NCBI GenBank assembly: GCA_035084275.1
Contig: CM068757.1
Span: forward strand, 15,810,001-15,874,000
Reading direction: 5' to 3'
DNA from: Hydrolagus colliei
Lineage: Eukaryota
Length of the DNA: 64,000 bases
In this document: positions 1,023 through 61,207 of the stretch, in pieces
Layout of the letters: each line of letters starts with the position of its first letter
Numbering within the stretch: the first letter of the stretch is position 1
Position numbers and translations under genes: made by a program
The notes under the pieces: generated by a model
Databases searched by the model: none
Told to the model about the DNA's origin: nothing
The model's input: only the letters and a program-made list of their open reading frames with translations

Positions 1023-1064
1023 CATTCACCACAGAGCCATCGACAACCTTCTCTACAACCACAG
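1023..1064 (+). CDS. Micro-exon type F (42 nt, AFTTEPSTTFSTTT), splice sites intact in this copy
   Basis: ctcttttccaatgttgtcaacAG|cattcacc...accacag|GTagtt. Confidence 0.5.
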
Positions 1065-4000
1065 GTAGTTGTGTTATTATCAGTCCTGGAGACTTTGGCA
1101 AACTTCACTTCAATACAGAGTCCTCGTAAAAATAGCCACTATGATAACTTATCCTCTATTTCTACTGAAATTTGATGCAATATATTTCTCATCATTGCAT
1201 TCTAACACCAACAACTGCAACAGCAGCAGCCCCCACTACAATAACAGGTAAACAAAGAACAAATTCCAACTCTCCATTCCAGAACAAACATCTTATTAAC
1301 TATAAACTTCCATTGTATATTTGCCATCCTGTAAGAATGCAGCCTCTATGATCATTACACAAACGATGTGTCCTGTCCCTTATGTCCTACTGGATTCACA
1401 TGGACCACATTTTTAAATGTACGTTAGATATTGGGTTTCTTTCTTCTTGTTATTGGTGATGGAGGGAAACAGCTGATATTAATCCTGCAGCAGTCACCAG
1501 CTTCTACCCATTTTATGGTTAGTGCCCGGCAGACATCACTTCCAAATCTTGTTGAATGTATAACCACAGGAATTGTGCCACTAACTATTCAAAGGAGCCT
1601 CTTAGTGCTATGTTGCGACTTGCTTCATTCATTCACTCACGTTTTTCGACTCAATTGTACATCCTTCTATTTACTGCAGGCGATGTCCAGGACTCACCAC
1701 CAAGTAAGTGTTGTCTTCACACACCTTGTGCTACGGGGATGTAGGAAGATATTAAACAGATGATTAAATTGATCTTGAGGGGTTTATCATTTGAAACTCG
1801 ATGAATGATTTAGCAGACTTGAACATCAGACATGTGCACAAGATCACATTTGCTAAGCAATGCCTCTTATCTAATATTGTCAGCAGCATTCCCCACAGAG
1901 TCTTCGACAACATTCTCTACAACAACAGGTATTTGTGAAATTGTCAGTCTTGGTGCCTTCATCAATCTTTACTTTGATACAAAACAGCAACCATCATATG
2001 CTAACCTCGAATTCTGTTGAAGGTTGATGCAATATATTTCTCCTCAACTTCTTACTTTCTAGCACCAACAACTACAACATCAACAATCCCCAGTACACCA
2101 GGTAAGCAAAGAACTTCCAACTCTGCATTTGACCCGCTTTGTACAATTTAACATCGATCGTCTTTCCTCCACCACACCCAATCAATGATCCGCTCTACCT
2201 TCCCTCACCTCCACAATATTGCCTGACTCCACCATTACCTCATCCCTGATACCGCTGAAACTCTCATTCATGTGTTGCTGACATCCAGGCTCACTATGCC
2301 GACGTCTTGCTTGTCGACCTTCCTAATTCATCCATCCATAGTTTGCAGATAATCCAGAACTCTGCAGTTTTCAGAGTGTCCTCTCCAATCTAAGCTTTGT
2401 GATCCCATCTCCCTCATCTTCACCTGACTCTGTTTACTCCCCATCATCTAGAGAATCCAATTGAATATCCTGCTCTTCACATTCAATTCCCTCCATGGCC
2501 TCGGCCCACCCTATATTTGCAACCTTATCTGCCTGCCCCCTCCGCTCAGGAGGCTCCGGCCTGTTCCACATTCCCCAACTCACTCTGCCATTGGCGGGCG
2601 AGCCTTCTGACACTCTGCTCCCAACCTCTGTAACTCCAACCCGCATTTCCTCCACCTTGCCCCTTCCCTGGCTTCCTTCAAATCCCGCCTCAAGACTCTC
2701 CTCTTTGACTGCCCCATCAATCACCCCTAAATCCCCCACTTCCACTCCACCCTCCCTGATCCTGACCCCATCTTATGTCTGAAACAATGACTGAAACAAT
2801 GAAACAACCCCCTCTACGACATCAGGTAAACAAAGAACAACTTCCAACTCTACATTTCCTGAGCAAACATCTACTTGATTGTCTTCACATTTCTCTATTA
2901 CAGTCACAATCGCCCTCCTTTAACTCATTGTTATCTCATTCTCTACGGTTTCCACAGGATGCGCACGCATGTCTTCATCAACAACCACCACTGAAACTGG
3001 TGAGGAACAGCACATTTCTACAGACACAACTGTTACATATCACATAGAGAAATCAGGCTACAAGAATCCTGCCACTTGCTTTGGCCACAACAGCAGCCAC
3101 TCTCCCAGTATCATTGCCAAATACTAGCTCAAACTTCAGCTTCAAGCAACTGAAAGAGGAGAATCATCTGAAGCATTTAGTTGCTCCACATTTATTCCTT
3201 CAAATTCTCACTTTAGAGCAACATCAGAAAACACTCTGACACAATGCTCAGCAACACTGTTCACTCCAATAACAGTTGTAGCCACATTAACTGCCTTTGA
3301 TTCAACTACTCGAATTACCCGTGTACACTTTGTCCAGAGCAGTCTCCAATGCCCATTTTGCCATTGATACTATGTTGAATGGAAACACTTGAAGCTTCCT
3401 TCTGGAGGTTCCTAGACCAATCTTTCTCAAGAAACAGCGCAGCTGCTAATGACCAACACACCTGCACTGGCACAATGCCTCTATCGTGTATCAACAGCAG
3501 CAGTAAACCACACGACCAGCCACTCCATTTTGTTTCCCTGCTGTGACATTAATTGTGCCCATTCATGCTGCCAACTCCATTGAAAGACAAAAACTGGCTG
3601 AAAGAATCACATTCATTTCTGTGCTTTCCAATCTTTCCAACTTTCTATTCCGACAGAAACATCAACAGCCACGACTTTGATATCAGGTATAAACGAGCAG
3701 AAGCTTCTCTCTTCCCATTTACGGTACAATGTCCTCTTTGTCCACCTGTGATTCAAACTTCCATTAACTATTTGCCATCCTGTAAGAACACAGCCTCAAT
3801 GAGCATTAGACAAACGATATGTCCTTTCCACTATGTCCTGCAAGAATCACATAGACCATTTTTTCACGTGTAATTTAAATATTGGATTTCTTTCTTCTTG
3901 TTAGTGCTGCTGGAGGGAAACAGCCAATTTTATCCCTGCAGCAGATACCAGCTTCTACCCATTACCTGGTGACCGCTGGGCAAGAAACATTTCCAAATCT

Positions 4001-7000
4001 TGTTGAGGGCACAACCACAGGAATTGAGTCACTAGATATTGAAAGGAGACTCTTAGCATGATGCTGTAACTTGCCTCATTCATTCACGTTTTTCCACTCA
4101 ATTGTAAACCCTTCGATGTACTGCAGACATTGTCATGCACAGACCAATGAGAAGGTTGTGTGTTCACACAGCTAGTGCTACCAGCATGTAGAAAGATATT
4201 AAACAGATGATTGTGTTCAACTTGAAGCATTTTTTTTTCAAATTTGATGAGTGATTTAGGAGAACTGCACATTATACTTGTGCATCAGATCACTTTTGCT
4301 AAGCAGCGTCTCTTTTCCAATGCTGTCAGCAGCATTCACCACAGAGCCATCGACAACTTTCTCAACAACCACAGTTATTTGTGTTACTGTCAGTGCCTTT
4401 GTCAACCTTCACTTCAATACAATGTCCTCGTAAGAATAGCCACTATGATAACTTAACCTCTATTTCTACTGAAAGTTGATGCAATATGTTTCTCATCATT
4501 ACATTCTAGCACCAACAACAACTACTACAACAGCAGCACCCACTACAATAACAGGTAAACAAAGAACAAATTCCAACTCTCCATTCCAGAACAAACATCT
4601 TATTAACTATAAACTTCCATTGTATATTTGCCATCCTGTAAGAATGCAGCCTCTATGATCATTACACAAACGATGTGTCCTGTCCCTTATGTCCTACTGG
4701 ATTCACATGGACCACATTTTTAAATGTACGTTAGATATTGGGTTTCTTTCTTCTTGTTATTGGTGATGGAGGGAAACAGCTGATATTAATCCTGCAGCAG
4801 TCACCAGCTTCTACCCATTTTATGGTTAGTGCCCGGCAGACATCACTTCCAAATCTTGTTGAATGTATAACCACAGGAATTGTGCCACTAACTATTCAAA
4901 GGAGCCTCTTCGTGCGATGTTCCGACTTGCTTCATTCATTCACTCATGTTTTTCGACTCAATTGTACATCCTTCTATTTACTGCAGGCAGTGTCCGGAAC
5001 ACAGCACCAAGTAAGTGTTGTCTTCACACACCTTGTGCTACGGGGATCTAGGAAGATATTAAACAGATGATTAATTTGATCTTGAGGGGTTTATCTTTGG
5101 AAACTCGATGAATGATTTAGCAGACTTGAACATCAGACATGTGCACAAGATCACATTTGCTAAGCAATGCCTCTTATCTAATATTGTCAGCAGCATTCCC
5201 CACAGAGTCTTCGACAACATTCTCTACAACAACAGGTATTTGTGAAATTGTCAGTCTTGGTGCCTTCATCAATCTTTACTTTGATACAAAACAGCAACCA
5301 TCATATGCTAACCTCGAATTCTGTTGAAGGTTGATGCAATATATTTCTCCTCAACTTCTTACTTTCTAGCAACAACAACTAAAACATCAACAACCCCCTC
5401 TACGACATCAGGTAAACAAAGAACAACTTCCAACTCTACATTTCCTGAGCAAACATCTACTTGATTGTCTTCACATTTCTCTATTACAGTCACAATCGCC
5501 CTCCTTTAACTCATTGTTATCTCATTCTCTACGGTTTCCACAGGATGCGCACGCATGTCTTCATCAACAACCACCACTGAAACTGGTGAGGAACAGCACA
5601 TTTCTACAGACACAACTGTTACATATCACATAGAGAAATCAGGCTACAAGAATCCTGCCACTTGCTTTGGCCACAACAGCAGCCACTCTCCCAGTATCAT
5701 TGCCAAATACTAGCTCAAACTTCAGCTTCAAGCAACTGAAAGAGGAGAATCATCTGAAGCATTTAGTTGCTCCACATTTATTCCTTCAAATTCTCACTTT
5801 AGAGCAACATCAGAAAACACTCTGACACAATGCTCAGCAACACTGTTCACTCCAATAACAGTTGTAGCCACATTAACTGCCTTTGATTCAACTACTCGAA
5901 TTACCCGTGTACACTTTGTCCAGAGCAGTCTCCAATGCCCATTTTGCCATTGATACTATGTTGAATGGAAACACTTGAAGCTTCCTTCTGGAGGTTCCTA
6001 GACCAATCTTTCTCAAGAAACAGCGCAGCTGCTAATGACCAACACACCTGCACTGGCACAATGCCTCTATCGTGTATCAACAGCAGCAGTAAACCACACG
6101 ACCAGCCACTCCATTTTGTTTCCCTGCTGTGACATTAATTGTGCCCATTCATGCTGCCAACTCCATTGAAAGACAAAAACTGGCTGAAAGAATCACATTC
6201 ATTTCTGTGCTTTCCAATCTTTCCAACTTTCTATTCCGACAGAAACATCAACAGCCACGACTTTGATATCAGGTATAAACGAGCAGAATCTTCTCTCTTC
6301 CCATTTACGGTACAATGTCCTCTGTGTCCACCTGTGATTCAAACTTCCATTAACTATTTGCCATCCTGTAAGAACACAGCCTCAATGAGCATTAGACAAA
6401 CGATATGTCCTTTCCACTATGTCCTGCAAGAATCACATAGACCATTTTTTCACGTGTAATTTAAATATTGGATTTCTTTCTTCTTGTTAGTGCTGCTGGA
6501 GGGAAACAGCCAATTTTATCCCTGCAGCAGATACCAGCTTCTACCCATTACCTGGTGACCGCTGGGCAAGAAACATTTCCAAATCTTGTTGAGGGCACAA
6601 CCACAGGAATTGAGTCACTAGATATTGAAAGGAGACTCTTAGCATGATGCAGTAACTTGCCTCATTCATTCACGTTTTTCCACTCAATTGTAAACCCTTC
6701 GATGTACTGCAGACATTGTCATGCACAGACCAATGAGAAGGTTGTGTGTTCACACAGCTAGTGCTACCAGCATGTAGAAAGATATTAAACAGATGATTGT
6801 GTTCAACTTGAAGCATTTTTATTTCAAATTTGATGAGTGATTTAGGAGAACTGCACATTATACTTGTGCACCAGATCACTTTTGCTAAGCAGCGTCTCTT
6901 TTCCAATGCTGTCAGCAGCATTCACCACAGAGCCATCGACAACTTTCTCAACAACCACAGTTATTTGTGTTACTGTCAGTGCCTTTGTCAACCTTCACTT

Positions 7001-10000
7001 CAATACAATGTCCTCGTAAGAATAGCCACTATGATAACTTAACCGCTATTTCTACTAAAGGTTGATGCAATATGTTTCTCATCATTACATTCTAGCACCA
7101 ACAACAACTACTACAACAGCAGCCCCCACTACAATAACAGGTAAACAAAGAACAAATTCCAACTCTCCATTCCAGAACAAACATCTTATTAACTATAAAC
7201 TTCCATTGTATATTTGCCATCCTGTAAGAATGCAGCCTCTATGATCATTACACAAACGATGTGTCCTGTCCCTTATGTCCTACTGGATTCACATGGACCA
7301 CATTTTTAAATGTACGTTAGATATTGGGTTTCTTTCTTCTTGTTATTGGTGATGGAGGGAAACAGCTGATATTAATCTTGCAGCAGTCACCAGCTTCTAC
7401 CCATTTTATGGTTAGTGCCCGGCAGACATCACTTCCAAATCTTGTTGAATGTATAACCACAGGAATTGTGCCACTAACTATTCAAAGGAGCCTCTTCGTG
7501 CGATGTTCCGACTTGCTTCATTCATTCACTCATGTTTTTCGACTCAATTGTACATCCTTCTATTTACTGCAGGCAGTGTCCGGAACACACCAGCAAGTAA
7601 GTGTTGTCTTCACACACCTTGTGCTACGGGGATCTAGGAAGATATTAAACAGATGATTAATTTGATCTTGAGGGGTTTATCTTTTGAAACTCGATGAATG
7701 ATTTAGCAGACTTGAACATCAGACATGTGCACAAGATCACATTTGCTAAGCAATGCCTCTTATCTAATATTGTCAGCAGCATTCCCCACAGAGTCTTCGA
7801 CAACATTCTCTACAACAACAGGTATTTGTGAAATTGTCAGTCTTGGTGCCTTCATCAATCTTTACTTTGATACAAAACAGCAACCATCATATGCTAACCT
7901 CGAATTCTGTTGAAGGTTGATGCAATATATTTCTCCTCAACTTCTTACTTTCTAGCAACAACAACTAAAACATCAACAACCCCCTCTACGACAGCAGCTA
8001 AACAAAGAACAACTTCCAACTCTACATTTCCTGAGCAAACATCTACTTGATTGTCTTCACATTTCTCTATTACTGTCACAATCGCCCTCCTTTAACTCAT
8101 TGTTATCTCATTCTCTACGGTTTCCACAGGATGCGCACGCATGTCTTCATCAACAACCACCACTGAAACTGGTGAGGAACAGCACATTTCTACAGACGCA
8201 ACTGTTACATATCACATAGAGAAATCAGGCTACAAGAATCCTGCCATTGGCTTTGGCCAGAACAGCAGCCACTCTCCCAGTATCAATGCCTGGCTCAAAC
8301 TTCAGCTTCAAGCAACTGAAAGAGGAGAATCATCTGAAGCATTCAGTCCGATTGCTCCACATTTATTCCTTCAAATTCTCACTTTAGAGCAACATCAGAA
8401 AACACTCTGACACAATGCTCAGCAACACTCTTCACTCCAACAACAGTTGTAGCCACATTAACTGCCTTTCACTCAACTACTTGAATTACCCATGCACACT
8501 TTGTCCAGAGCAGTCTCCAATGCCCATTTTTCCATTGATACTATGTTGAATGGAAACACTTGAAGCTTGCTTCTGGAGGTTCCTGGACCAATCTTTCTCA
8601 AGAAGCAGCGCAGCTGCTAATGAACAACACACCTGGCACTGCCACATTGCCTCTATTGTGTATCAATAGCAGCAGTAAACCACACGACCAGCCACTCCAT
8701 TTTGTTTCCCTGCTGTGACATTAATTGTGCCCATTCATGCTGCCAATTCCATTGAAAGACAAAAACTAGCTGGAAGAATCACATTCGTTTCTGTGCTTTC
8801 CAATCTTTCCAACTTTCTATTCCAACAGAAACATCAACAGCCACGACTTCGACATCAGGTATACAAAGAGCAGAAGCTTCTCTCCTCCCATTTACGGTGC
8901 AATATCCCCTTTGACCACCTGTGATTCAAACTTCCATTAACTATTTGCCATCCTGTAAGAATGTATCCTCTGTGAGCATTAGACAAATGAAATGTCCTTT
9001 CCCTTATGTCCAGCTGGAATCACACAGCACTTTTTCACACGTACTTTAGTTATTGGGTTTCTTTCTTCTTGTTAGTGCTGATGGAGGGAAACAGCCAATA
9101 TTAACCTTGCAGCAGATACCAGCTTCTGCCCATTACCTGGTGATCGCAGGGCCAGAAACATTTCCAAATCTTGTTGAGGGCGTAACCACAGGAATTGTGT
9201 CGCGAGATATTGAAAGGAGACTCTCAGCATGATGTTGTAACTTGACTCATTCATTCACATTTTTCCACTCAATTCTAAACCCTTCGATCTACTGCAGACA
9301 TTGCCATGGACAGAGCAATAAGAAAGGATGTAGAAAGATATCAAACAGATGATTGAATTGAACTTCAAGCGGTTTTCTTTTGAAATTTGATGAGTGATTT
9401 AGAAGAACTGCACATTATTCTTGTGCACCAGATCATTTTTGCTAAGCAATCTCTCGTTTCCAATGTTGTCAGCAGCATTCACCTCACAGGCATCGACAAC
9501 CTTCTCTACAACCACGGGTATTTGTGTTATTGTCATTCTTGGTGCTTTCATTCAATACAGCGTCATCGTAAAAATAGCCACTATGATAAATTAACCTCTA
9601 TTGCTACTAATATTTGATGCAATATATTTCTCCTCAACTTCTTACTTTCTAGCAACAACAACTAAAACATCAACAACCCCCTCTACGACAGCAGGTAAAC
9701 AAAGAACAACTTCCAACTCTACATTTCCTGAGCAAACATCTACTTGATTGTCTTCACATTTCTCTATTACAGTCACAATCACCCTCCTTTAACTCATTGT
9801 TATCTCATTCTCTACGGTTTCCACAGGATGCGCACGCATGTCTTCATCAACAACCACCACTGAAACTGGTGAGGAACAGCACATTTCTACAGACACAACT
9901 GTTACATATCACATAGAGAAATCAGGCTACAAGAATCCTGCCATTAGCTTTGCCCACAACAGCAGCCACTCTCCCAGTATCATTGCCAAACACTAGCTCA

Positions 10001-13000
10001 AACTTCAGCTTCAAGCAACTGAAAGAGGAGAATCATCTGAAGCATTCAGTCCGATTGCTCCACATTTATTCCTTCAAATTCTCACTTTAGAGCAACATCA
10101 GAAAACACTCTGACGCAATGCTCAGCAACACTCTTCACTCCAACAACAGTTGTAGCCACATTACCTGCCTTTGACTCAACTACTTGAATTACCCGTGTAC
10201 ACTCTGTCCAGAGCAGTCTCCAATGCCCATTTTTCCATTGATACGATGTTGAATGGAAACACATGAAGCTTGCTTCTGGAGGTTCCTGGACCAATCTTTC
10301 TCAAGAAGCAGCACAGCTGCTAATGAACAACACACCTGGCACTGCCACATTGCCTCTATTGTGTATCAATAGCAGCAGTAAACCACACGACCAGCCACTC
10401 CATTTTGTTTCCCTGCTGTGACATTAATTGTGCCCATTCATGCTGCCAACTCCATTGAAAGACAAAAACTAGCTGGAAGAATCACATTTGTTTCTGTGCT
10501 TTCCAATCTTTCCAACTTTCTATTCCAACAGAAACATCAACAGCCACGACTTCGACATCAGGTATACAAAGAGCAGAAGCTTCTCTCCTCCCATTTACGG
10601 TGCAATATCCCCTTTGACCACCTGTGATTCAAACTTCCATTAACTATTTGCCATCCTGTAAGAATGTAGCCTCTGTGAGCATTAGACAAATGAAATGTCC
10701 TTTCCCTTATGTCCAGCTGGAATCACACAGCACTTTTTCACACGTACTTTAGTTACTGGGTTTCTTTCTTCTTGTTAGTGCTGATGGAGGGAAACAGCCA
10801 ATATTAACCTTGCAGCAGATACCAGCTTCTGCCCATTACCTGGTGATCGCAGGGCCAGAAACATTTCCAAATCTTGTTGAGGGCGTAACCACAGGAATTG
10901 TGTCGCGAGATATTGAAAGGAGACTCGCAGCATGATGCTGTAACTTGCCTCATTCATTCACGTTTTTCCACTCAATTGTAAACCCTTCGATGTACTGCAG
11001 ACATTGTCATGCACAGACCAATGAGAAGGTTGTGTGTTCACACAGCTAGTGCTACCAGCATGTAGAAAGATATTAAACAGATGATTGTGTTCAACTTGAA
11101 GCATTTTTTTTTCAAATTTGATGAGTGATTTAGGAGAACTGCACATTATACTTGTGCACCAGATCACTTTTGCTAAGCAGCGTCTCTTTTCCAATGCTGT
11201 CAGCAGCATTCACCACAGAGCCATCGACAACTTTCTCAACAACCACAGTTATTTGTGTTACTGTCAGTGCCTTTGTCAACCTTCACTTCAATACAATGTC
11301 CTCGTAAGAATAGCCACTATGATAACTTAACCTCTATTTCTACTAAAAGTTGATGCAATATGTTTCTCATCATTACATTCTAGCACCAACAACAACTACT
11401 ACAACAGCAGCCCCCACTACAATAACAGGTAAACAAAGAACAAATTCCAACTCTCCATTCCAGAACAAACATCTTATTAACTATAAACTTCCATTGTATA
11501 TTTGCCATCCTGTAAGAATGCAGCCTCTATGATCATTACACAAACGATGTGTCCTGTCCCTTATGTCCTACTGGATTCACATGGACCACATTTTTAAATG
11601 TACGTTAGATATTGGGTTTCTTTCTTCTTGTTATTGGTGATGCAGGGAAACAGCTGATATTAATCCTGCAGCAGTCACCAGCTTCTACCCATTTTATGGT
11701 TAGTGCCTAGCAGACATCACTTCCAAATCTTGTTGAATGTACAACCACAGGAATTGTGCCACTACCTATTCAAAGGAGCCTCTTCGTGCGATGTTCCGAC
11801 TTGCTTCATTCATTCACTCACGTTTTTCGACTCAATTGTACATCCTTCTATTTACTGCAGGCGATGTCCAGAACACACCAGCAAGTAAGTGTTGTCTTCA
11901 CACACCTTGTGCTACGGGGATGTAGGAAGATATTAAACAGATGATTAATTTGATCTTGAGGGGTTTATCTTTTGAAACTCGATGAATGATTTAGCAGACT
12001 TGAACATCAGACATGTGCACAAGATCACATTTGCTAAGCAATGCCTCTTATCTAATATTGTCAGCAGCATTCCCCACAGAGTCTTCGACAACATTCTCTA
12101 CAACAACAGGTATTTGTGAAATTTTCAGTCTTGGTGTCTTCATCAATCTTTACTTTGATACAAAACAGCAACCATCATATGCTAACCTCGAATTCTGTTG
12201 AAGGTTGATGCAATATATTTCTCCTCAACCTCTTACTTTCTAGCACCAACAACTAAAACATCAACAACCCCCTCTACGACAGCAGCTAAACAAAGAACAA
12301 CTTCCAACTCTACATTTCCTGAGCAAACATCTACTTGATTGTCTTCACATTTCTCTATTACTGTCACAATCGCCCTCCTTTAACTCATTGTTATCTCATT
12401 CTCTACGGTTTCCACAGGATGCGCACGCATGTCTTCATCAACAACCACCACTGAAACTGGTGAGGAACAGCACATTTCTACAGACGCAACTGTTACATAT
12501 CACATAGAGAAATCAGGCTACAAGAATCCTGCCATTGGCTTTGGCCAGAACAGCAGCCACTCTCCCAGTATCAATGCCTGGCTCAAACTTCAGCTTCAAG
12601 CAACTGAAAGAGGAGAATCATCTGAAGCATTCAGTCCGATTGCTCCACATTTATTCCTTCAAATTCTCACTTTAGAGCAACATCAGAAAACACTCTGACG
12701 CAATGCTCAGCAACACTCTTCACTCCAACAACAGTTGTAGCCACATTACCTACCTTTGACTCAACTACTTGAATTACCCGTGTACACTCTGTCCAGAGCA
12801 GTCTCCAATGCCCATTTTTCCATTGATACTATGTTGAATGGAAACACTTGAAGCTTGCTTCTGGAGGTTCCTGGACCAATCTTTCTCAAGAAGCAGCACA
12901 GCTGCTAATGAACAACACACCTGGCACTGCCACATTGCCTCTATTGTGTATCAATAGCAGCAGTAAACCACACGACCAGCCACTCCATTTTGTTTCCCTG

Positions 13001-49000: not shown

Positions 49001-52000
49001 GGGCTTGACGCAACGCCAAATGGTAGCCTATTGTATTGATACAGGCCCATATGAGTGTTGATAGTCAAGTACGCCTTTGACTTCTCATCTAGCTCTAACT
49101 GTTAATAGACTTTTGACAAGTCCATTTTAGAACATACTTTACCACCTACCAATGTGTTGAACAAATCTTCTACGTTTGGTAACGTGTCAGGTGGACTACA
49201 CTCCAGAACTCGATTCACTGTTACCTTGTAGTCCCCACAGATTCTGATACTACCGTCAGATTTTGGAACTACAACAATGGAAGTAGTCCAATTACTTTGT
49301 TGTACTTTACTGATAATGTTCTCCTTTTCCAGTCTTTTCAGTTCTTTTTCTACTTTTTCTCTCATTGCGTATGGCACTGGGCGTGGCTTATAGTGCCTTG
49401 TACGTGGGCCTTGCTTCACCTTGCACTCCTAAACTTGCTTTGTATCCGCTGATGGGTGCACCGGATTCACTGAACACCGTTGAATGCTTTTTTTCCCTCT
49501 CTTCCTGTATTGTGAACGAGATTTGCACAGGGAAAGTTTCTTGCCAATCTAATTTCAGCGAGTTCATCCAATTTTTACCAAGTAATGCTGTTTTTTCTCA
49601 CTTCACCACAAGAATTGGCAAATCTGCACATTGATCCTTGTATTTAACTGGAACACACACTCTACCCAAAACTGGGATGATCTCTCCTCCATAGTTGCGC
49701 AGCTCGACCCTTGCTGTTTGTAGCTTATTTTTGCTCAACTTTTCTCGGTGCAGTTTTTCAGACACCACACTGACTGCTGCTCCAGTATCAACTTCCATGA
49801 TTACTGGGACTCCATCCAATGTTACTTGGACCTTGATGCTATGCAATTTGCTACTGGATGCTTTTGTGTTGTAGATCATGTTGATCTCCACTGGCTCCTC
49901 AGAGTCCTCACTCTCCTGGTGTCGCTCAACCGTATGCAGAAACTGACGTCTTTTCTTGACCGCATTCGTCCGCTTCGACTTGAAACAAGCCTTTGCAAGA
50001 TGCCCAGTCTTATGGCACGAATATCACTCCACTTTCGTCAAAAGGCAAGATTGTGCTGGATGAGAACCCAGACATCGATAGCATGACTTTGAACTCGTCC
50101 CGCTACTCTTCCCTCGTGGTCGATTCACAAGTGCTTTGAATTTCACTTTGCACACCTGCAGCTGTTGACCTCCCCCACTGTTAGGCAATAGCTTGCTCGA
50201 ACTTCTTTTGAATCTCTCTCAGCCATGTCCATAGACAAGGCAGTTTTACATGCTAACTCAAATGTTAGCTGTGACATTGTCATTAATTTGCTTTGGATAC
50301 GGTCGCTCTTCAGTCTGCACACAAACCTATCTCGTAATGCAAGGTCCTGGAAATCTCCAAAATTGCAGTGTATCGACAGCTTTTTCAATGCTACGAAAAA
50401 ACTGCCAATGGTTTCCTCTGGTAATTGACATCTGGCACCAAATCGGTAACTCTCTGCAATCTCTAATGGCTTTGGGTCATAGTGTTCTGTAAGCTTTTCA
50501 AGGATGTCCTTCAATGGGGTGTCCTTAGGCTTAGTTGGGGTTAACAAATTCTTCACTGTTTCATACACATCGGGACCCACTTCTGTCAGAAAGATTGCTC
50601 TCATTCTTTCTTGCACTGCTGTATTTACACTTCCAGAATTATCTTCAGCAGCTTCAATTTCAACAATATTATTGGCAGCAAAGAACATCTCCAAACGCTC
50701 AATCTAAGCACTAAACATTTCCCGGCTTTGTTGAAACTCACCCAATTGTCCGATGTATCCGATGGGAGTCTTCATTTGGGGATTTTTTTTATCAGTACCA
50801 CCACACGTGAACACAAACCTTACTGGATTTGTAGCTCTCAATCAAAATGAAAGTATTCACAGACCTCTAGGCACTTTGTAGAGACCTTCTCCTACAAACA
50901 GACATAGCTAGGGAATCCACTATCCCATCCTCATCACCAATTTGTGATATATCTGGGACTACAAGTATCAGAAACGTTCAGGCTGCAATGTTATGGAAAA
51001 CAACTGCACATATCATGTGGTTTATTTACATTTCTATACACTGGTCAGCAGATGGCACTCTCACAAACCTGAAGTTTCTTTTGAAATTGGATGATGCTTT
51101 AGGAGAACTGCACATTATACTTGTGCACCAGATCATTTTTGCTAAGCAATCTCTCTTTTCCAATGTTGTCAACAGCATTCACCACAGAGCCATCGACAAC
51201 CTTCTCTACAACCACAGGTAGTTGTGTTATTATCAGTCCTGGAAACCTTGGCAAACTTCACTTCAATACAGAGTCCTCGTAAAAATAGCCACTATGATAA
51301 CTTATCCTCTATTTCTACTGCAATTTGATGCAATATATTTCTCATCATTGTATTCTAACACCAACAACTGCAACAGCAGCAGCCCCCACTACAATAACAG
51401 GTAAACAAAGAACAAATTCCAACTCTCCATTCCAGAACAAACATCTTATTAACTATAAACTTCCATTGTATATTTGCCATCCTGTAAGAATGCAGCCTCT
51501 ATGATCATTACACAAACGATGTGTCCTGTCCCTTATGTCCTACTGGATTCACATGGACCACATTTTTAAATGTACGTTAGATATTGGGTTTCTTTCGTCT
51601 TGTTATTGGTGATGGAGGGAAACAGCTGATATTAATCCTGCAGCAGTCACCAGCTTCTACCCATTTTATGGTTAGTGCCCGGCAGACATCACTTCCAAAT
51701 CTTGTTGAATGTATAACCACAGGAATTGTGCCACTAACTATTCAAAGGAGCCTCTTCGTGCGATGTTCCGACTTGCTTCATTCATTCACTCATGTTTTTC
51801 GACTCAATTGTACATCCTTCTATTTACTGCAGGCGATGTCCAGAACACACCAGCAAGTAAGTGTTGTCTTCACACACCTTGTGCTACGGGGATCTAGGAA
51901 GATATTAAACAGATGATTAATTTGATCTTGAGGGGTTTATCTTTTGAAACTCGATGAATGATTTAGCAGACTTGAACATCAGACATGTGCACAAGATCAC

Positions 52001-55000
52001 ATTTGCTAAGCAATGCCTCTTATCTAATATTGTCAGCAGCATTCCCCACAGAGTCTTCGACAACATTCTCTACAACAACAGGTATTTGTGAAATTGTCAG
52101 TCTTGGTGTCTTCATCAATCTTTAATACAAAACAGCAACTATCATATGCTAACCTCGAATTCTGTTGAAGGTTGATGCAATATATTTATCCTCAACCTCT
52201 TACTTTCTAGCACCAACAACTAAAACATCAACAACCCCCTCTACGACAGCAGCTAAACAAAGAACAACTTCCAACTCTACATTTCCTGAGCAAACATCTA
52301 CTTGATTGTCTTCACATTTCTCTATTACAGTCACAATCGCCCTCCTTTAACTCATTGTTGTCTCATTCTCTACGATTTTCACAGGATGCGCACGCATGTC
52401 TTCATCAACAACCACCACTGAAACTGGTGAGGAACAGCACATTTCTACAGACGCAACTGTTACATATCACATAGAGAAATCAGGCTACAAGAATCCTGCC
52501 ATTGGCTTTGCCCAGAACAGCAGCCACTCTCCCAGTATCAATGCCAAACACTAGCTCAAACTTCAGCTTCAAGCAACTGAAAGAGGAGAATCATCTGAAG
52601 CATTCAGTCCGATTGCTCCACATTGATTCCTTCAAATTCTCACTTTAGAGCAACATCAGTGCTCTAAATTCAACTACTTGAATTACCCATGCACACTTTG
52701 TCCAGAGCAGTCTCCAATGCCCATTTTTCCATTGATACTATGTTGAATGGAAACACTTGAAGCTTGCTTCTGGAGATTCCTGGAAGAATCCTTTTCAAGA
52801 AGCAGCACAGCTGCTAATGAACAACACACCTGGCACTGCCACATTGCCTCTATTGTGTATCAATAGCAGCAGTAAACCACATCACCAGCCACTCCATTTT
52901 CTTTCACTGCTGTGACATTAATTGTGCCCATTCATGCTGCTAACTCCATTGAAAGATAAACACTGGCTGAAAGAATCACATTCCTTTCTGTGCTTTCCAA
53001 TCTTTCCAACTTTCTATTCCAACAGAAACATCAACAGCCACGACTTCGACATCAGGTACACAAAGAGCAGAAGCTTCTCTCCTCCCATTTGTGGTGCAAA
53101 CTTCCATTATCTATTTGCCATCCTGTAAGAATGTAGCCCCTATGAGCATTAGACTAATGATATGACCTTTCCCTTATGTCCTGTTGGAATCACATGGACC
53201 ACTTTTTTAGATATTGGGTTTCTTTCTTCTTGTTAGTGCTGATGGAGTTAAACAGCCAATTTTAACCCTGTGGTAGATACCAGCTTCTACCCGTTACCTG
53301 ATAACCACTGTGCCATAAACATTTCCAAATCTTGTTGCGGGCATAACCACAGGAATTGTGCCAATAGACATTGAAAGGAGACTCTTAGCATGATGCTGTA
53401 ACTTGCCTCATTCATTTACGTTTTTCCACTCAATTGTAAAACCTTCGATGTACTGCAGACATTGTCATGGAAACACCAATAAGAAAGTTGTGTATTCACA
53501 CAGCTAGCACTACCAGGATGTAGAACGATATCAAACAGATAATTCAATTGAACTTGAAGGGATTTTCTTTTGAAATTTGATGAGTGATTTAGGAGAACTG
53601 CACATTATTCTTGTGCACCAGATCACTTTTGCTAAGCAATGTCTCTTTTCCAATGTTGTCAGCAGAATTCACCACAGAGCCATCGACAACCTTCTCTACA
53701 ACAACAGGTATTTGTGTTATTGTCAGTCCTGGTGCCTTCGTCAACCTTCAATTCAAAACAGTGTCCTCGTAAATATAGCCACTATGATATCTTAACCACT
53801 ATTGCTACTGAAAGTTGCTGCAATATATTAAACAGATGATTGAATTGAACTGTGTGATATCTCTGGGACTACAATTATCACACATGTTCACGCTGCAATG
53901 TTCTGGGAAACGACTGCACACATCATGTGATTTATTTACATTTATTTCCACGGTCACTAGATGGCGCTATCACGGCTCCTCCCTCCTTAATGAAGAAATT
54001 ATGAAAAAGTTACAATTACTGACATTCAAAACACGATGCTATGTACAATTGTTTTTCTACATATGTACAATTTATAAATACATACGTACAATTTATGTAT
54101 ATTATCATGTTCAAACTGTGACACATCCAATGAAAATTCAAACTTGACTTCTGGTTTCCTACTTTCCCTGTCCAAAAGTTTTAGGACTCATGGTAGCACT
54201 CGGACTTTTAGAACTCATGGTAACACTCGGACTTGCCATGTGTCCAGTCTGGTATTCATCTTGACTTTCACTCCTAGTCTCCAGTTACTCAGTCAGGCTC
54301 TTGACTATCACCTGGAACTAAACCCTCACCTTCATTCACACTTGAATTCTGGTTTTCTGTTAAGTCCTCTGTTACCATTACTGACTTGTTCATTGGTCTA
54401 AAACTATTTGGTTGATTAGATTTATCCATTTCTCTCCACTCTTCCGGTACTTGTGTAGGTAAGATGTGATCAATATGGACAAATCTGAGTTTGCCACTTT
54501 CAAACATCCTGACCAAATAGGTGCGCGGTCCACATACTTTCACTAATCTTCCTGGTACCCACTTTACCCATTTGTGATGATGGTTCTTCACTTTAACTTT
54601 TTTATTTATCTCCATCTTTCTGTCTTTCACCCTTACTCCATCATGGTTCTCTCTCTGCCTCTCCTGTTTTCCATCTACCGTTTGTGCTAAATTGGGATAC
54701 AACAATGAAAATCTTGTTCTCGGGTGTCTTTTTAGGAACACGTCAGCCGGTGTTCTGCCTGTAGTGGTGTGAAGTGTCTTACGATACGTTATCAGAAAGT
54801 TGGCTGGTTTGTGAGGCAATGATAATTGACTTTGGGGTTGCATCTCGCATTTGCTAACCTAGCGTCCGTTTGACAATTTGCACATTGCGCTCCGAAGCAC
54901 CATTCAAAGCTGGATGGTATGCAGCTACTCTAGTGTGCTTCACACCATTCTTTTCCATGCATTGCGCGAACTCTTCTGAACAGAACTGTGGTCCATTGTC

Positions 55001-58000
55001 AGACACGATTTCCTCTGGAAATCCATATGAAGCAAACGACCCTCTAACAATATCCAGTTTTGCTAGATATTGTTGTGTTCATCGGAAACACCTCAACCCA
55101 CTTGGAATGACAATGTATCACAATGAACAACTACTATCCATCTAGATCAGCAAAATCTATCTGTAACCTTTGCCACACTCTGGCTGGCCATTTCCAGGAC
55201 CGTAGTGGTACTGTTAGTGGACTCCTTCCAACCGACTCACATACACTACACTGTTTTACTGTGTTTTCAATGTATTTATCCAACCCTGGCCACCATAAGT
55301 AGTTCTAGCTAGACTCTTGGTCAGACACATCCCTCGGTGTTGATCATGAAGATCACCGAAAAACTGTTCTCTGTACCTTTCAGGGATAACAACTCTAGCT
55401 CCCCACATGACACATCCTTGGTCATTTGACAATTCATGTCTCCTAACAAAGTATGGCCTAATTTCTTCTTCTGTCTCAGTTATATGACTAGGCCACCCAC
55501 TCACAATATAGTCATGCACCTTGGATAAAACCCTGTCCCTACGAGTTGTCTTGCTGATGTCACTTGATGTGACTGGCAGCTCCTCAATATGGGAAAAATA
55601 GAACACATCTTCCCTGTTGGATTTCATTTCTGATGCTAAGGGTAACTTCGACATTGCATCGGCATTACCATGGTCTGCTGACCTACGATATTGTAAGTCA
55701 TACTGGTATGCTGACAAGATCAATGAACATCTTTGCATTCTGGCTGCTGCTAGAGTAGGTACCTGTGATTTTGGATTTAGGATTGCTGTCAAAGGTTTAT
55801 GGTCTGTTTCAATGATGAATTTGCGACCATACAGTATTTGTGGAATCTCCTAGCTCCAAAAATCAAGGCCAAAGCTTCTCTCTCTATTTGGGCGTAGTTT
55901 TTCTCACGACTACTCAGGGTTCTAGAAGCGAACGCCCCTGTTTCAAATGCATCAGAGATAACTGCACCAACCCCGTATGGGGGGGCGTCACATGCTAGGC
56001 TTGATGGTCTTTGTGACATCATAGTGTACCAGCATTGTACCATCTATTAGATGTTTTTTACACGACTTGAAAGCCTGGTCACATTCACGTGTCCATTTAC
56101 ATGGCACATCTTTCTTCAAAAGCTCATCCGAGGGGTGTATAAAGGTTGACAAATTTGGAATGAATTTTCCATAATAATTCAACAATCCCAAGAATGATCG
56201 TAGCTCAGATGTGTTTCTGGGAATGGGCGCGTTCCTGATCGCATTGACCTTACTCTGAGTTGGGTGCAACCCATCTTTGTCTACCTTGAGCCCTAGGTAC
56301 TCTAAAGACTCTTTAAACATCTCACATTTGTGAGCCTTGACGCATACTTGGAGTTTCTCTAACCTTTGTTACACCATGTGTAGCCTTTCGTCATCAACCT
56401 GCCTATTTGGCGCAGAGATGACTATGTCATCAAGGTAGCATATTACCCCATCGATTCCCTCTAGAATCTGAGTCATGAACCCTTGGAAAATTCCTGGGCT
56501 TGACGCAACGCCAAATGGTAGCCTATTGTATTGATACAGGCCCATATGAGTGTTGATAGTCAAGTACGCCTTTGACTTCTCATCTAGCTCTAACTGTTAA
56601 TAGACTTTTGACAAGTCCATTTTAGAACATACTTTACCACCTACCAATGTGTTGAACAAATCTTCTACGTTTGGTAACGTGTCAGGTGGACTACACTCCA
56701 GAACTCGATTCACTGTTACCTTGTAGTCCCCACAGATTCTGATACTACCGTCAGATTTTGGAACTACAACAATGGAAGTAGTCCAATTACTTTGTTGTAC
56801 TTTACTGATAATGTTCTCCTTTTCCAGTCTTTTCAGTTCTTTTTCTACTTTTTCTCTCATTGCGTATGGCACTGGGCGTGGCTTATAGTGCCTTGTACGT
56901 GGGCCTTGCTTCACCTTGCACTCCTAAACTTGCTTTGTATCCGCTGATGGGTGCACCGGATTCACTGAACACCGTTGAATGCTTTTTTTCCCTCTCTTCC
57001 TGTATTGTGAACGAGATTTGCACAGGGAAAGTTTCTTGCCAATCTAATTTCAGCGAGTTCATCCAATTTTTACCAAGTAATGCTGTTTTTTCTCACTTCA
57101 CCACAAGAATTGGCAAATCTGCACATTGATCCTTGTATTTAACTGGAACACACACTCTACCCAAAACTGGGATGATCTCTCCTCCATAGTTGCGCAGCTC
57201 GACCCTTGCTGTTTGTAGCTTATTTTTGCTCAACTTTTCTCGGTGCAGTTTTTCAGACACCACACTGACTGCTGCTCCAGTATCAACTTCCATGATTACT
57301 GGGACTCCATCCAATGTTACTTGGACCTTGATGCTATGCAATTTGCTACTGGATGCTTTTGTGTTGTAGATCATGTTGATCTCCACTGGCTCCTCAGAGT
57401 CCTCACTCTCCTGGTGTCGCTCAACCGTATGCAGAAACTGACGTCTTTTCTTGACCGCATTCGTCCGCTTCGACTTGAAACAAGCCTTTGCAAGATGCCC
57501 AGTCTTATGGCACGAATATCACTCCACTTTCGTCAAAAGGCAAGATTGTGCTGGATGAGAACCCAGACATCGATAGCATGACTTTGAACTCGTCCCGCTA
57601 CTCTTCCCTCGTGGTCGATTCACAAGTGCTTTGAATTTCACTTTGCACACCTGCAGCTGTTGACCTCCCCCACTGTTAGGCAATAGCTTGCTCGAACTTC
57701 TTTTGAATCTCTCTCAGCCATGTCCATAGACAAGGCAGTTTTACATGCTAACTCAAATGTTAGCTGTGACATTGTCATTAATTTGCTTTGGATACGGTCG
57801 CTCTTCAGTCTGCACACAAACCTATCTCGTAATGCAAGGTCCTGGAAATCTCCAAAATTGCAGTGTATCGACAGCTTTTTCAATGCTACGAAAAAACTGC
57901 CAATGGTTTCCTCTGGTAATTGACATCTGGCACCAAATCGGTAACTCTCTGCAATCTCTAATGGCTTTGGGTCATAGTGTTCTGTAAGCTTTTCAAGGAT

Positions 58001-61000
58001 GTCCTTCAATGGGGTGTCCTTAGGCTTAGTTGGGGTTAACAAATTCTTCACTGTTTCATACACATCGGGACCCACTTCTGTCAGAAAGATTGCTCTCATT
58101 CTTTCTTGCACTGCTGTATTTACACTTCCAGAATTATCTTCAGCAGCTTCAATTTCAACAATATTATTGGCAGCAAAGAACATCTCCAAACGCTCAATCT
58201 AAGCACTAAACATTTCCCGGCTTTGTTGAAACTCACCCAATTGTCCGATGTATCCGATGGGAGTCTTCATTTGGGGATTTTTTTTATCAGTACCACCACA
58301 CGTGAACACAAACCTTACTGGATTTGTAGCTCTCAATCAAAATGAAAGTATTCACAGACCTCTAGGCACTTTGTAGAGACCTTCTCCTACAAACAGACAT
58401 AGCTAGGGAATCCACTATCCCATCCTCATCACCAATTTGTGATATATCTGGGACTACAAGTATCAGAAACGTTCAGGCTGCAATGTTATGGAAAACAACT
58501 GCACATATCATGTGGTTTATTTACATTTCTATACACTGGTCAGCAGATGGCACTCTCACAAACCTGAAGTTTCTTTTGAAATTGGATGATGCTTTAGGAG
58601 AACTGCACATTATACTTGTGCACCAGATCATTTTTGCTAAGCAATCTCTCTTTTCCAATGTTGTCAACAGCATTCACCACAGAGCCATCGACAACCTTCT
58701 CTACAACCACAGGTAGTTGTGTTATTATCAGTCCTGGAAACCTTGGCAAACTTCACTTCAATACAGAGTCCTCGTAAAAATAGCCACTATGATAACTTAT
58801 CCTCTATTTCTACTGCAATTTGATGCAATATATTTCTCATCATTGTATTCTAACACCAACAACTGCAACAGCAGCAGCCCCCACTACAATAACAGGTAAA
58901 CAAAGAACAAATTCCAACTCTCCATTCCAGAACAAACATCTTATTAACTATAAACTTCCATTGTATATTTGCCATCCTGTAAGAATGCAGCCTCTATGAT
59001 CATTACACAAACGATGTGTCCTGTCCCTTATGTCCTACTGGATTCACATGGACCACATTTTTAAATGTACGTTAGATATTGGGTTTCTTTCGTCTTGTTA
59101 TTGGTGATGGAGGGAAACAGCTGATATTAATCCTGCAGCAGTCACCAGCTTCTACCCATTTTATGGTTAGTGCCCGGCAGACATCACTTCCAAATCTTGT
59201 TGAATGTATAACCACAGGAATTGTGCCACTAACTATTCAAAGGAGCCTCTTCGTGCGATGTTCCGACTTGCTTCATTCATTCACTCATGTTTTTCGACTC
59301 AATTGTACATCCTTCTATTTACTGCAGGCGATGTCCAGAACACACCAGCAAGTAAGTGTTGTCTTCACACACCTTGTGCTACGGGGATCTAGGAAGATAT
59401 TAAACAGATGATTAATTTGATCTTGAGGGGTTTATCTTTTGAAACTCGATGAATGATTTAGCAGACTTGAACATCAGACATGTGCACAAGATCACATTTG
59501 CTAAGCAATGCCTCTTATCTAATATTGTCAGCAGCATTCCCCACAGAGTCTTCGACAACATTCTCTACAACAACAGGTATTTGTGAAATTGTCAGTCTTG
59601 GTGCCTTCATCAATCTTTACTTTGATACAAAACAGCAACCATCATATGCTAACCTCGAATTCTGTTGAAGGTTGATGCAATATATTTCTCCTCAACTTCT
59701 TACTTTCTAGCAACAACAACTAAAACATCAACAACCCCCTCTACGACAGCAGCTAAACAAAGAATAACTTCCAACTCTACATTTCCTGAGCAAACATCTA
59801 CTTGATTGTCTTCACATTTCTCTATTACAGTCACAATCGCCCTCCTTTAACTCATTGTTGTCTCATTCTCTACGATTTTCACAGGATGCGCACGCATGTC
59901 TTCATCAACAACCACCACTGAAACTGGTGAGGAACAGCACATTTCTACAGACGCAACTGTTACATATCACATAGAGAAATCAGGCTACAAGAATCCTGCC
60001 ATTGGCTTTGCCCAGAACAGCAGCCACTCTCCCAGTATCAATGCCAAACACTAGCTCAAACTTCAGCTTCAAGCAACTGAAAGAGGAGAATCATCTGAAG
60101 CATTCAGTCCGATTGCTCCACATTGATTCCTTCAAATTCTCACTTTAGAGCAACATCAGTGCTCTAAATTCAACTACTTGAATTACCCATGCACACTTTG
60201 TCCAGAGCAGTCTCCAATGCCCATTTTTCCATTGATACTATGTTGAATGGAAACACTTGAAGCTTGCTTCTGGAGATTCCTGGAAGAATCCTTTTCAAGA
60301 AGCAGCACAGCTGCTAATGAACAACACACCTGGCACTGCCACATTGCCTCTATTGTGTATCAATAGCAGCAGTAAACCACATCACCAGCCACTCCATTTT
60401 CTTTCACTGCTGTGACATTAATTGTGCCCATTCATGCTGCTAACTCCATTGAAAGATAAACACTGGCTGAAAGAATCACATTCCTTTCTGTGCTTTCCAA
60501 TCTTTCCAACTTTCTATTCCAACAGAAACATCAACAGCCACGACTTCGACATCAGGTACACAAAGAGCAGAAGCTTCTCTCCTCCCATTTGTGGTGCAAA
60601 CTTCCATTATCTATTTGCCATCCTGTAAGAATGTAGCCCCTATGAGCATTAGACTAATGATATGACCTTTCCCTTATGTCCTGTTGGAATCACATGGACC
60701 ACTTTTTTAGATATTGGGTTTCTTTCTTCTTGTTAGTGCTGATGGAGTTAAACAGCCAATTTTAACCCTGTGGTAGATACCAGCTTCTACCCGTTACCTG
60801 ATAACCACTGTGCCATAAACATTTCCAAATCTTGTTGCGGGCATAACCACAGGAATTGTGCCAATAGACATTGAAAGGAGACTCTTAGCATGATGCTGTA
60901 ACTTGCCTCATTCATTTACGTTTTTCCACTCAATTGTAAAACCTTCGATGTACTGCAGACATTGTCATGGAAACACCAATAAGAAAGTTGTGTATTCACA

Positions 61001-61207
61001 CAGCTAGCACTACCAGGATGTAGAACGATATCAAACAGATAATTCAATTGAACTTGAAGGGATTTTCTTTTGAAATTTGATGAGTGATTTAGGAGAACTG
61101 CACATTATTCTTGTGCACCAGATCACTTTTGCTAAGCAATGTCTCTTTTCCAATGTTGTCAGCAGAATTCACCACAGAGCCATCGACAACCTTCTCTACA
61201 ACAACAG
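1023..61207 (+). CDS. Putative multi-exon mucin-like (PTS-rich) gene segment built from tandemly amplified phase-1 micro-exons; both gene ends lie outside the window
   Basis: Repeated pyrimidine-tract+AG ... G|GT-bounded segments of 24/27/30/39/42/45 nt, separated by 130-660 nt. In unit 2958-5411, joining 2958-2999, 3657-3686, 3942-3968, 4510-4554, 4798-4824, 4987-5010, 5194-5235 and 5370-5411 gives 279 nt = GCARMSSSTTTTET-ETSTATTLIS-ADTSFYPLP-APTTTTTTAAPTTIT-AVTSFYPFY-GSVRNTAP-TFPTESSTTFSTTT-ATTTKTSTTPSTTS with no stop. Expression not shown. Confidence 0.6.
2063..2101 (+). CDS. Micro-exon type A variant (39 nt, APTTTTSTIPSTP)
   Basis: cttcttactttctAG|caccaaca...cagtacaccag|GTaagc; one codon shorter than the 42-nt type, frame preserved. 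Confidence 0.6.
2128..2775 (+). mobile_element. L2-type (CR1/L2 clade) non-LTR retrotransposon 3' fragment, decayed
   Basis: Broken frames read HLHNIA*LHHYL...AETLIHVLLTSRL, LQIIQNSA, LHGLGPPY, PLRS, GGRAF*HSAPNLCNS, SFKSRLKTLLF, matching the L2 ORF2 C-terminus; C-rich. Confidence 0.85.
2958..2999 (+). CDS. Micro-exon type D (42 nt, GCARMSSSTTTTET)
   Basis: ctctacggtttccacAG|gatgcgca...gaaactg|GTgagg; about 18 copies in the window (e.g. 5544-5585). Confidence 0.6.
3219..3503 (+). pseudogene. Probable dead 285-nt phase-1 exon (ATSENTLTQCSATLFTPITVVATLTAFDSTTRIT...VSTAA)
   Basis: Follows ttccttcaaattctcactttagAG; Thr/Ser/Ala-rich start; in-frame TGA and TAG; ends cagcag-taaac, i.e. the usual cag|gtaaac donor lacking one G. 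Confidence 0.4.
3657..3686 (+). CDS. Micro-exon type C (30 nt, ETSTATTLIS; ETSTATTSTS in other copies)
   Basis: Long pyrimidine tract ctttccaatctttccaactttctattccgacAG|aaacatca...gatatcag|GTataa. Confidence 0.6.
3942..3968 (+). CDS. Micro-exon type H (27 nt, ADTSFYPLP), weak donor
   Basis: ttttatccctgcAG|cagatacc...ttacctg|GTgacc; paralogue of type G. Confidence 0.35.
4333..4374 (+). pseudogene. Type F micro-exon with donor mutated GT>TT in the 2586-bp unit
   Basis: gtcagcAG|cattcacc...accacag|TTattt, versus GTattt/GTagtt in copies 1023-1064, 9476-9517, 28433-28474. Confidence 0.5.
4510..4554 (+). CDS. Micro-exon type B (45 nt, APTTTTTTAAPTTIT)
   Basis: cattacattctAG|caccaaca...caataacag|GTaaac; all Thr codons fall in one frame. 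Confidence 0.65.
4798..4824 (+). CDS. Micro-exon type G (27 nt, AVTSFYPFY)
   Basis: ttaatcctgcAG|cagtcacc...ttttatg|GTtagt; also 1491-1517. Confidence 0.4.
4987..5010 (+). CDS. Micro-exon type I (24 nt, GSVRNTAP; GDVQDSPP / GDVQNTPA in variants)
   Basis: ccttctatttactgcAG|gcagtgtc...gcaccaa|GTAAGT (full consensus intronic donor hexamer); also 1680-1703. Confidence 0.55.
5194..5235 (+). CDS. Micro-exon type E (42 nt, or 45 nt via NAGNAG; xFPTESSTTFSTTT)
   Basis: ctaatattgtCAGCAG|cattcccc...caacaacag|GTattt; also 1887-1928. Confidence 0.6.
5370..5411 (+). CDS. Micro-exon type A (42 nt, ATTTKTSTTPSTTS)
   Basis: ttctcctcaacttcttactttctAG|caacaaca...gacatcag|GTaaac; also 9653-9694. Confidence 0.65.
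13956..13997 (+). CDS. Divergent type A/B micro-exon (42 nt, APTTATSTIPTTTT)
   Basis: ctttttattttgcAG|caccaaca...acaacag|GTaaac; different upstream intron sequence but same length and phase; second copy near 42125-42166. Confidence 0.6.
28620..28741 (-). repeat. 3' LTR of Gypsy copy 2
   Basis: tgtgatatctctgggactaca...gatggcgctatcacg aligns to 33213-33335. Confidence 0.9.
28742..28755 (-). promoter_or_regulatory. Polypurine tract
   Basis: Minus strand AAGGAGGGAGGAGC immediately before the 3' LTR. Confidence 0.8.
28900..30301 (-). pseudogene. pol: Gypsy integrase, fragmented
   Basis: WGARVVIP...LH, core GFPEEIVSDNGPQF and YHPALNGASER (read from reverse of ~29650-29800), YRKTLHTTTGRTPA, WVPG...GPRTY. 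Confidence 0.88.
28946..28999. repeat. 2 x 27-bp tandem duplication near the end of Gypsy pol
   Basis: ttttaggactcatggtagcactcggac / ttttagaactcatggtaacactcggac; present in all 3'-containing copies. Confidence 0.85.
30347..31695 (-). pseudogene. pol: Gypsy reverse transcriptase / RNase H, fragmented
   Basis: PRPVPY, IRICGDYK, RLPFGVASSPGIFQ, YLDD, LRSFLGLLNYY, ACDA, EREALA, NADAMSR across several broken ORFs. Confidence 0.93.
31874..32167 (-). pseudogene. pol: Gypsy aspartic protease fragment
   Basis: MEVDTGAAVSVV active-site motif. Confidence 0.9.
32230..33052 (-). pseudogene. gag: Gypsy gag with two zinc knuckles, disrupted
   Basis: MKTPIGYIGQLGEF...*IERLEMFF...LRDRFVC; CYRCLGSHPAQSC and *YSCHKTGHLAKAC; internal stops. 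Confidence 0.85.
33190..33209 (-). promoter_or_regulatory. Primer-binding site for tRNA-Ser(GCT)
   Basis: + strand GAATCCCATCCTCGTCGCCA matches, from recall, the 3' end (with CCA) of metazoan tRNA-Ser(GCT); 3 nt from the LTR. Confidence 0.88.
33213..33335 (-). repeat. 5' LTR of Gypsy copy 2
   Basis: TGTGAtat...ctcTCACA terminal inverted repeat; adjacent to PBS. Confidence 0.9.
33336..46357. repeat. Tandem array block 2: about 5 units; its start duplicates block 1 at offset 32423
   Basis: ORFs 835->33258, 2495->34918, 6139->38562 and 7725->40148 are all +32423 with essentially identical translation. Confidence 0.97.
34551..35198 (+). mobile_element. Second copy of the same L2 fragment (+32423)
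   Basis: Same sequence and flanks as 2128-2775. Confidence 0.85.
46358..51065 (-). mobile_element. Gypsy copy 3 (4708 bp), decayed
   Basis: Same domains and flanks as copy 2; LTRs 46358-46479 and 50943-51065. Confidence 0.96.
53853..58560 (-). mobile_element. Gypsy copy 4 (4708 bp), decayed
   Basis: Copy 3 + 7495; identical ORF translations; 5' LTR 58438-58560. Confidence 0.96.

Follow-up and report, generated by a model that had tools for sequence, protein, structure and literature searches.

A 64,000-nt stretch of the genome of Hydrolagus colliei (GenBank assembly GCA_035084275.1, contig CM068757.1; G000:C24:15810001-15874000, forward strand), here called the window, forms the middle of a tandem array of mini-exons in the PTS region of a predicted Muc6-like gel-forming mucin gene. 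An earlier note on this DNA had proposed that single-base splice-site changes, which leave the same exon intact in some repeat units and dead in others, act as an on/off code. The alternation is real, and it is probably a record of duplication history rather than a regulated or selected code. Neutral decay, which the note had named as its alternative, gives the best fit, with an intron-like rate of loss and about one event per site. The array is likely to consist of redundant symmetric cassettes under relaxed selection, in which splice sites are lost at the neutral rate, with dead copies hitchhiking as unequal crossover multiplies the units. The mutational history of the losses, both their origin and their rate, is directly observed.

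Exon-like segments were catalogued by alignment to 12 prototypes across the window and 200 kb of flanking sequence; negative positions lie upstream of the window start. The array contains 346 copies of ten exon types (A, B, C, D, E, F, G, H, I and K, with the variants A2 and B2), from which a truncated E-like remnant at -8643 was excluded. The letters A, B, F and H are those of the earlier note, whose H corresponds to the 27-nt exon type at 3942-3968, and the remaining letters were assigned here. The window (1..64000, + strand) holds 174 catalogued copies, 48 of them dead, and over the whole array 100 of the 346 copies are dead. The cassettes enter and exit in phase 1, have lengths of 24-45 nt and are multiples of three in all but 12 copies. 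Self-comparison revealed sub-units of ~860 bp nested inside 1.7-, 2.6-, 4.3-, 7.5- and 32-kb repeats. The intact PTS-type cassettes (n = 163) together encode 2,151 aa, of which 51% are Thr and 19% are Ser (70% combined), and no stop codon is found among them.

All exon positions and single-base changes on which the proposed code was built are present in the sequence (Table 1). The acceptor of exon B has changed from AG to AA in 7 of the 28 B copies in the array, with one further copy reading TG, and the AA allele is found in 7/7 units that follow a 5' long terminal repeat (LTR), with an intact F exon between LTR and B. The H donor has changed from GT to AT in 7/7 pre-LTR units. The TT donor of F alternates with GT donors at 1065, 9518, 28475 and 61208, and the CT donor of A with GT at 5412 and 9695. 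Several further losses had been missed. The C acceptor is lost in 6 of 36 copies, five of which also carry one additional nucleotide (43 nt). The GA donor shared by all copies of K is an older, fixed loss, and four K copies have in addition an AA acceptor. Two A remnants in the array are split by a fragment resembling a long interspersed nuclear element (LINE), which at 2102..2800 we take to be of the L2 type. The claim that all exons are symmetric applies to most copies, the exceptions being five H copies of 29 nt with intact AG and GT and the five acceptor-dead C copies of 43 nt.

For analysis of the origin of the losses, copies were compared over their aligned flanks, with the splice dinucleotides masked when clades were determined. 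Each of the losses in B, F, H, C and K is confined to a single haplotype marked by linked changes in the introns, which identifies it, at the level of aligned sequence, as one event amplified by duplication. Under masking, F copies with the TT donor and B copies with the AA acceptor each form a single clade (100/99 and 100/100, respectively). Distances within the AA-B, TT-F, AT-H and TT-C classes are 0.8-2.8%, compared to 7-16% between classes, or 5-16% in the comparison that also covers the AA allele of K. Linked diagnostic columns number 14-24 each for B, F, H and C (24 for B and 19 for H) and three for the AA allele of K. The CT allele of A has no linked marker, lies on mosaic flanks and is about two sites away from the commonest GT haplotype. 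This points to one allele that appears to have spread over mosaic backgrounds by recombination or conversion, with either direction being compatible.

The LTR retrotransposon is best interpreted as one old insertion that was copied along with the array. The seven elements (~4.7 kb) have identical junctions and are 98.1-100% alike, so the B loss "after every Gypsy LTR" amounts to one event, not seven; within one element, 18 of 121 sites distinguish the two LTRs. Independent Gypsy insertions were ruled out by the shared junctions. The name Gypsy is the earlier note's label for this element, and the layout appears to fit it.

The rate of splice-site loss was analysed by counting variable columns, with each allele counted once. 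Shared variants affect 6 of 40 splice positions and 237 of 1986 deep-intron columns (p = 0.47, B2-to-C and F-to-A introns left out). Compared to each exon's own 120-nt flanks, and with the C acceptor included, 8 splice-site variants were observed and 5.5 expected (P >= 0.19), and for the PTS exon types alone there were 5 against 3.3 expected (P >= 0.23). Between exon super-families, 10 of 24 splice positions and 110 of 329 background positions differ (p = 0.50). The earlier note had held that splice dinucleotides mutating as often as introns would, together with a lack of transcripts, speak against its code, and they do mutate as often (p = 0.47, 0.19 and 0.50). There is neither a deficit of the kind produced by purifying selection nor a significant excess, and the independent losses are no more numerous than chance gives. 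The exon substitutions showed no synonymous excess (6/22 vs 6.7 expected).

An upstream Muc6-like paralogue (G000:C24:15.638-15.741 Mb) with its own array of 21-27-nt phase-1 cassettes provides a control. Its array spans ~60 kb (G000:C24:15673000-15734000) with at least 67 cassettes, many of which are non-PTS-like (Pro/Trp/His-rich). Among the 58 of 67 copies used, 0 of 16 splice positions are variable, compared to 123 of 219 flank columns. The nine copies left out comprise six dead ones damaged by deletion or replacement, one with an AT donor and a 2-nt insertion, one shortened in frame and one intact copy. With the AT-donor copy included, the result is 1/16 versus 123/219 (p = 9e-5), indicating that the statistic can detect splice-site constraint, which is absent from the focal array. 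Although both genes carry mini-exon arrays, the splice dinucleotides are strongly conserved in the paralogue and dead cassettes are fewer, 7/67 and mostly through deletion versus 100/346 in the focal array (p = 0.001). The paralogue families were seeded from intact copies, and the profile search still recovered damaged ones. The Callorhinchus protein model P0076, the counterpart of this paralogue, chains the same four cassette families, with some units lacking certain cassettes, and mini-exons of this class, including the non-PTS 27-mers, are therefore conserved and probably real. At residues ~960-1501 this model contains paralogue cassettes in the wrong frame after intron read-through, and its published tail is probably an annotation error.

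The predicted exons indicate that the host gene is intact and encodes a Muc6-like gel-forming mucin, with the Muc6 placement based on best hits. The upstream exons match Callorhinchus milii mucin-6-like, the best hit of the gene (73%), at 60-88% in tblastn, and nearly all of the 120 D3 matches listed are named mucin-6. Pfam identified C8 and VWD domains on the upstream exons, which form three N-terminal VWD-C8-TIL assemblies with conserved cysteines (85 of 86 covered positions kept). The 21 anchored N-terminal exons are bounded by GT-AG and can be joined into stop-free stretches of 307 and 703 codons; another two D2 exons are compatible with the frame on inspection. The last D3 exon ends in phase 1. 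Two cystine-knot exons, at window positions 117039 and 117959, follow ~930 bp past the last cassette with a phase-1 entry, 95 aa and 11 Cys; the first gives a weak match to Pfam Cys_knot (E = 0.045). With D3 exons upstream and cystine-knot exons downstream, both in phase 1, the array occupies the position of a Muc6-type PTS domain, and this phase and flanking-exon evidence supports the earlier view of a mucin domain made of symmetric phase-1 cassettes. A long-standing pseudogene state of the whole gene was ruled out by the intact flanking exons. One D3 cysteine, which all 112 of the 112 MUC6 matches listed possess, is replaced by Tyr (L016:3168-3278, window -16833 to -16723); a new Cys eight residues downstream might compensate. 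The database models of the Callorhinchus orthologue contain no PTS domain and end 20 aa past D3. Truncated database models are common for such repeats.

About one point mutation per affected site destroyed a splice dinucleotide in a single lineage of units, and the dead lineages were then multiplied by duplication together with one Gypsy-type insertion. In the reading that we prefer, the loss of a symmetric cassette would usually result in in-frame skipping at a cost that may be negligible. With many intact PTS cassettes present and each loss cheap, single splice sites would come under relaxed selection, resulting in the birth and death of exons. Exon content differs among unit types, as the earlier note had pointed out, and would give unit-specific glycopeptides if intact copies are used; the glycopeptide sequence would then be changed passively by dead cassettes and not by a selected code.

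Several observations weigh against this reading. Only 24-40 splice positions are available, and a modest excess or deficit would be undetectable. The paralogue is equally redundant in design, yet its splice sites are protected, so redundancy alone is not a sufficient explanation of the relaxation; the paralogue has the smaller array, with 67 copies compared to 346. Between two ancient sub-units, exons have diverged by 22-25% and introns by 21-22% (12-19% for G/F alone), which fits disuse of the array as well. The same is true of the weak sites of intact E, F, G and H exons, as scored with a home-made matrix that was trained on 33 sites, one of them mis-anchored by a base, and is accordingly rough. 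On this scale, the acceptors of all ten types except B2, C and D rank no higher than the lowest tenth of the training set, and donors are weak in E, F and G but good in A, B, B2, C and D. Finally, some losses may not be frame-neutral. That any loss keeps the frame, as the earlier note had proposed, is not assured: 20 of the 21 F copies with a TT donor have a consensus-like donor 55 nt downstream that is out of frame, and the five frameshifted 29-nt H copies retain intact sites.

Two sequence features near dead sites were also noted. Behind the dead F donor (4394-4429 and in other F-TT units) there is a possible in-frame 36-nt cryptic exon ending at the +55 donor. In-frame rescue of the AA-type B exon through internal AGs at +18/+21/+24 was rejected on the basis of very poor scores.

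A rather unlikely alternative is that the array is largely unused, with cassettes mostly skipped or the gene recently released from constraint, so that satellite-like expansion yields little PTS product and the knock-outs are still neutral. In addition to the equal exon and intron divergence and the weak sites described above, this is favoured by the missing synonymous excess, the tolerance of seven 4.7-kb retroelements, the Tyr in place of the D3 cysteine and the Callorhinchus orthologue models that stop soon after D3. However, the N- and C-terminal exons around the array are intact and in frame, good donors are kept in five exon types, and the intact PTS cassettes are free of stops and rich in Thr/Ser. 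The synonymous test does not discriminate, as the paralogue cassettes, whose splice sites are protected, also lack an excess.

The code of the earlier note, in which unit-specific losses are selected or toggled by gene conversion and serve to diversify the mucin in glycopeptide or length distribution, we regard as improbable. Dead haplotypes do reach high copy numbers (21/44 for F-TT and 14/29 for A-CT), the point estimates lie slightly over expectation (8 vs 5.5), and the GT and CT alleles of A, about two sites apart on shared mosaic backgrounds, are compatible with conversion either way. Moreover, none of the 28 F-to-B introns has two working ends, so that adjacent F and B exons are never live together. 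Nevertheless, this F/B pattern goes back to two events, and by a rough estimate the chance that one of ten intron types shows such a pattern is 0.35-0.66. The excess of losses is not significant, the numerous dead copies go back to roughly one event per site with no recurrent loss, and a fixed genomic loss gives the identical chain in every transcript and does not itself create polydispersity. It is equally hard to credit, and quite unlikely, that the array works as a heritable switchboard in which cassettes would be silenced by splice losses, exon A restored by conversion from live neighbours, F and B kept mutually exclusive and unit numbers set by crossover. Mild selection of this kind is compatible with the low power of the rate tests, and if true it would tune, from individual to individual, the glycosylation landscape of a mucin in a cartilaginous fish.

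That the variants or the copy pattern are assembly artefacts is highly improbable: certain 7.5-kb units show 99.96-100% identity across the LTR element, and copy number and order may be misassembled, but each allele is found in 4-21 copies on a consistent haplotype, a read-derived DNA contig (depth 1456) aligned to one unit carries the A donor G>C allele, and the deepest read-derived contig across the F donor has only three other differences from the TT unit. The reads are probably from the assembly's own sample and serve as a check on consensus error only; with coverage in all 30 bins including introns and no joints, the run behaves as DNA and has no bearing on expression.

Table 1. Features of the mini-exon array (positions relative to the window start)
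Feature	Position	Strand	Copies or basis
Exon B, acceptor AA	1206..1247; also 33629, 51359, 58854	+	4/15 B copies in the window, single-origin haplotype
Exon F, donor TT	4333..4374	+	11/22 copies in the window, 21/44 in the array
Exon F, intact, post-LTR type	1023..1064; other intact types at 9476, 28433	+	
Exon A, donor CT	7956..7997; further exon ends 12285, 40420, 44757, 52252, 59752	+	6 in the window, 14/29 in the array
Exon A, intact	5370..5411	+	
Exon H, donor AT, first AG of tandem acceptor also lost	28041..28067; also 45779, 53274, 60774	+	7/37 in the array
Exon H, 29-nt frameshifted copy, AG/GT intact	15119..15147	+	5 in the array
Exon C, acceptor lost and 1-nt insertion	14123..14165; also 42292	+	
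Exon K (D paralogue), donor GA	4127..4150	+	37/37 copies; missed by the earlier note
LINE-like fragment between A2 and acceptor-less A remnant	2102..2800; also ~34525-35225	.	
Tandem mini-exon array, PTS region of Muc6-like gene	-8341 to 116111 (~125 kb)	+	Prototype catalogue
One 2586-bp unit, order F B I D G A C E H K	4250..6800	+	Self-comparison, catalogue
Degraded LTR retrotransposon	28620..33334	-	Aspartyl protease and RNase H matches; 7 copies in the array

Further features of the array were observed. A 32.4-kb higher-order duplication relates window positions 1-12686 to 32424-45164 with 98.2% identity, and three 7.5-kb units (46358-66355) carry LTR elements that are 99.96-100% alike; together they suggest that the array either expanded very recently or is uncertain in its assembly. 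Tandem NAGNAG acceptors occur in most F, G, H and I copies (e.g. 1020-1022, 1884-1886, 3942-3944), making one-codon variants possible. Exon E (3648-3686) is A/B-like by eye, its original acceptor apparently lost and its start now at an internal AG ~9 nt inward. Both D (1680-1703) and K (4127-4150) contain a Cys codon off the phase-1 frame, probably by chance. Elsewhere on the chromosomes, more VWD mucin genes are located at G000:C24:15.41-15.62 Mb and C13:4.3-4.4 Mb, and the gene at 15.60-15.63 Mb has ~380-bp repeats past D3, which may be another array.

The focal array is a real feature with an ordinary cause that stands out in scale and in its contrast to the sister gene. A new regulatory code is not demonstrated by it; it offers a rare, fully assembled view of exon birth and death inside one gene, of modest importance, with a built-in control in the form of two sister Muc6-like arrays, of which one guards its splice sites and the other does not. 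It also accounts for database models of such genes that end early or out of frame. A literature search found no description of this array or of dead mini-exons in a chondrichthyan mucin, with most subscription papers outside the search and absence thus unproven. Multi-exon PTS domains, polydispersity through splicing and splice-dead pseudoexons have all been described before.

In Muc13 of chicken and zebrafish, each PTS repeat is described as having its own exon, and splicing of these exons is proposed to control the length of the domain within an individual (PMC1552070, Lang et al. 2006). As in the focal array, that PTS domain is composed of near-identical short exons (PMC1552070). Muc13 differs in being a membrane mucin with one exon per repeat and ~12 repeats, as described there, in contrast to the gel-forming gene analysed here with 10 types and 346 copies, 29% of them dead. 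The Xenopus integumentary mucin FIM-B.1 is reportedly polymorphic as a result of alternative splicing. The Xenopus secreted mucin FIM-C.1 is described as polymorphic via alternative splicing (PMC7177656). Polydispersity by cassette skipping is the outcome that the earlier note had proposed; however, the variable skipping of the FIM mucins is reported to have been demonstrated on cDNA, in contrast to the fixed splice-site loss found here at the DNA level.

The glycophorin genes GYPB and GYPE and GYP(B-A-B) resemble the array in the copy-specific splice silencing, here at the DNA level, of a duplicated exon of an O-glycosylated protein. In GYPB, a point mutation in a splice site is reported to silence pseudoexon 3, which gene conversion can reactivate (PMC12199742). 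The glycophorins, as presented there, are separate paralogous genes with antigenic phenotypes, whereas the focal array has hundreds of copies in one gene. Among gel-forming mucins, chicken MUC2 is reported to have a PTS domain over several exons and one in-frame splice variant (PMC3549977). The focal gene has the D1-D2-D3, PTS and cystine-knot organization given for vertebrate MUC6 in Lang et al. 2016 (PMC4948705), who also report two Muc6 paralogues in Callorhinchus. The human MUC6 mucin domain, described as encoded by one large exon (PMC9712336), differs from the 125-kb intron-rich array of 346 mini-exon copies. The array shows that holocephalan Muc6-like genes use cassette-exon repeat domains, in agreement with the suggestion of Lang et al. 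that multi-exon PTS domains are old in vertebrates.

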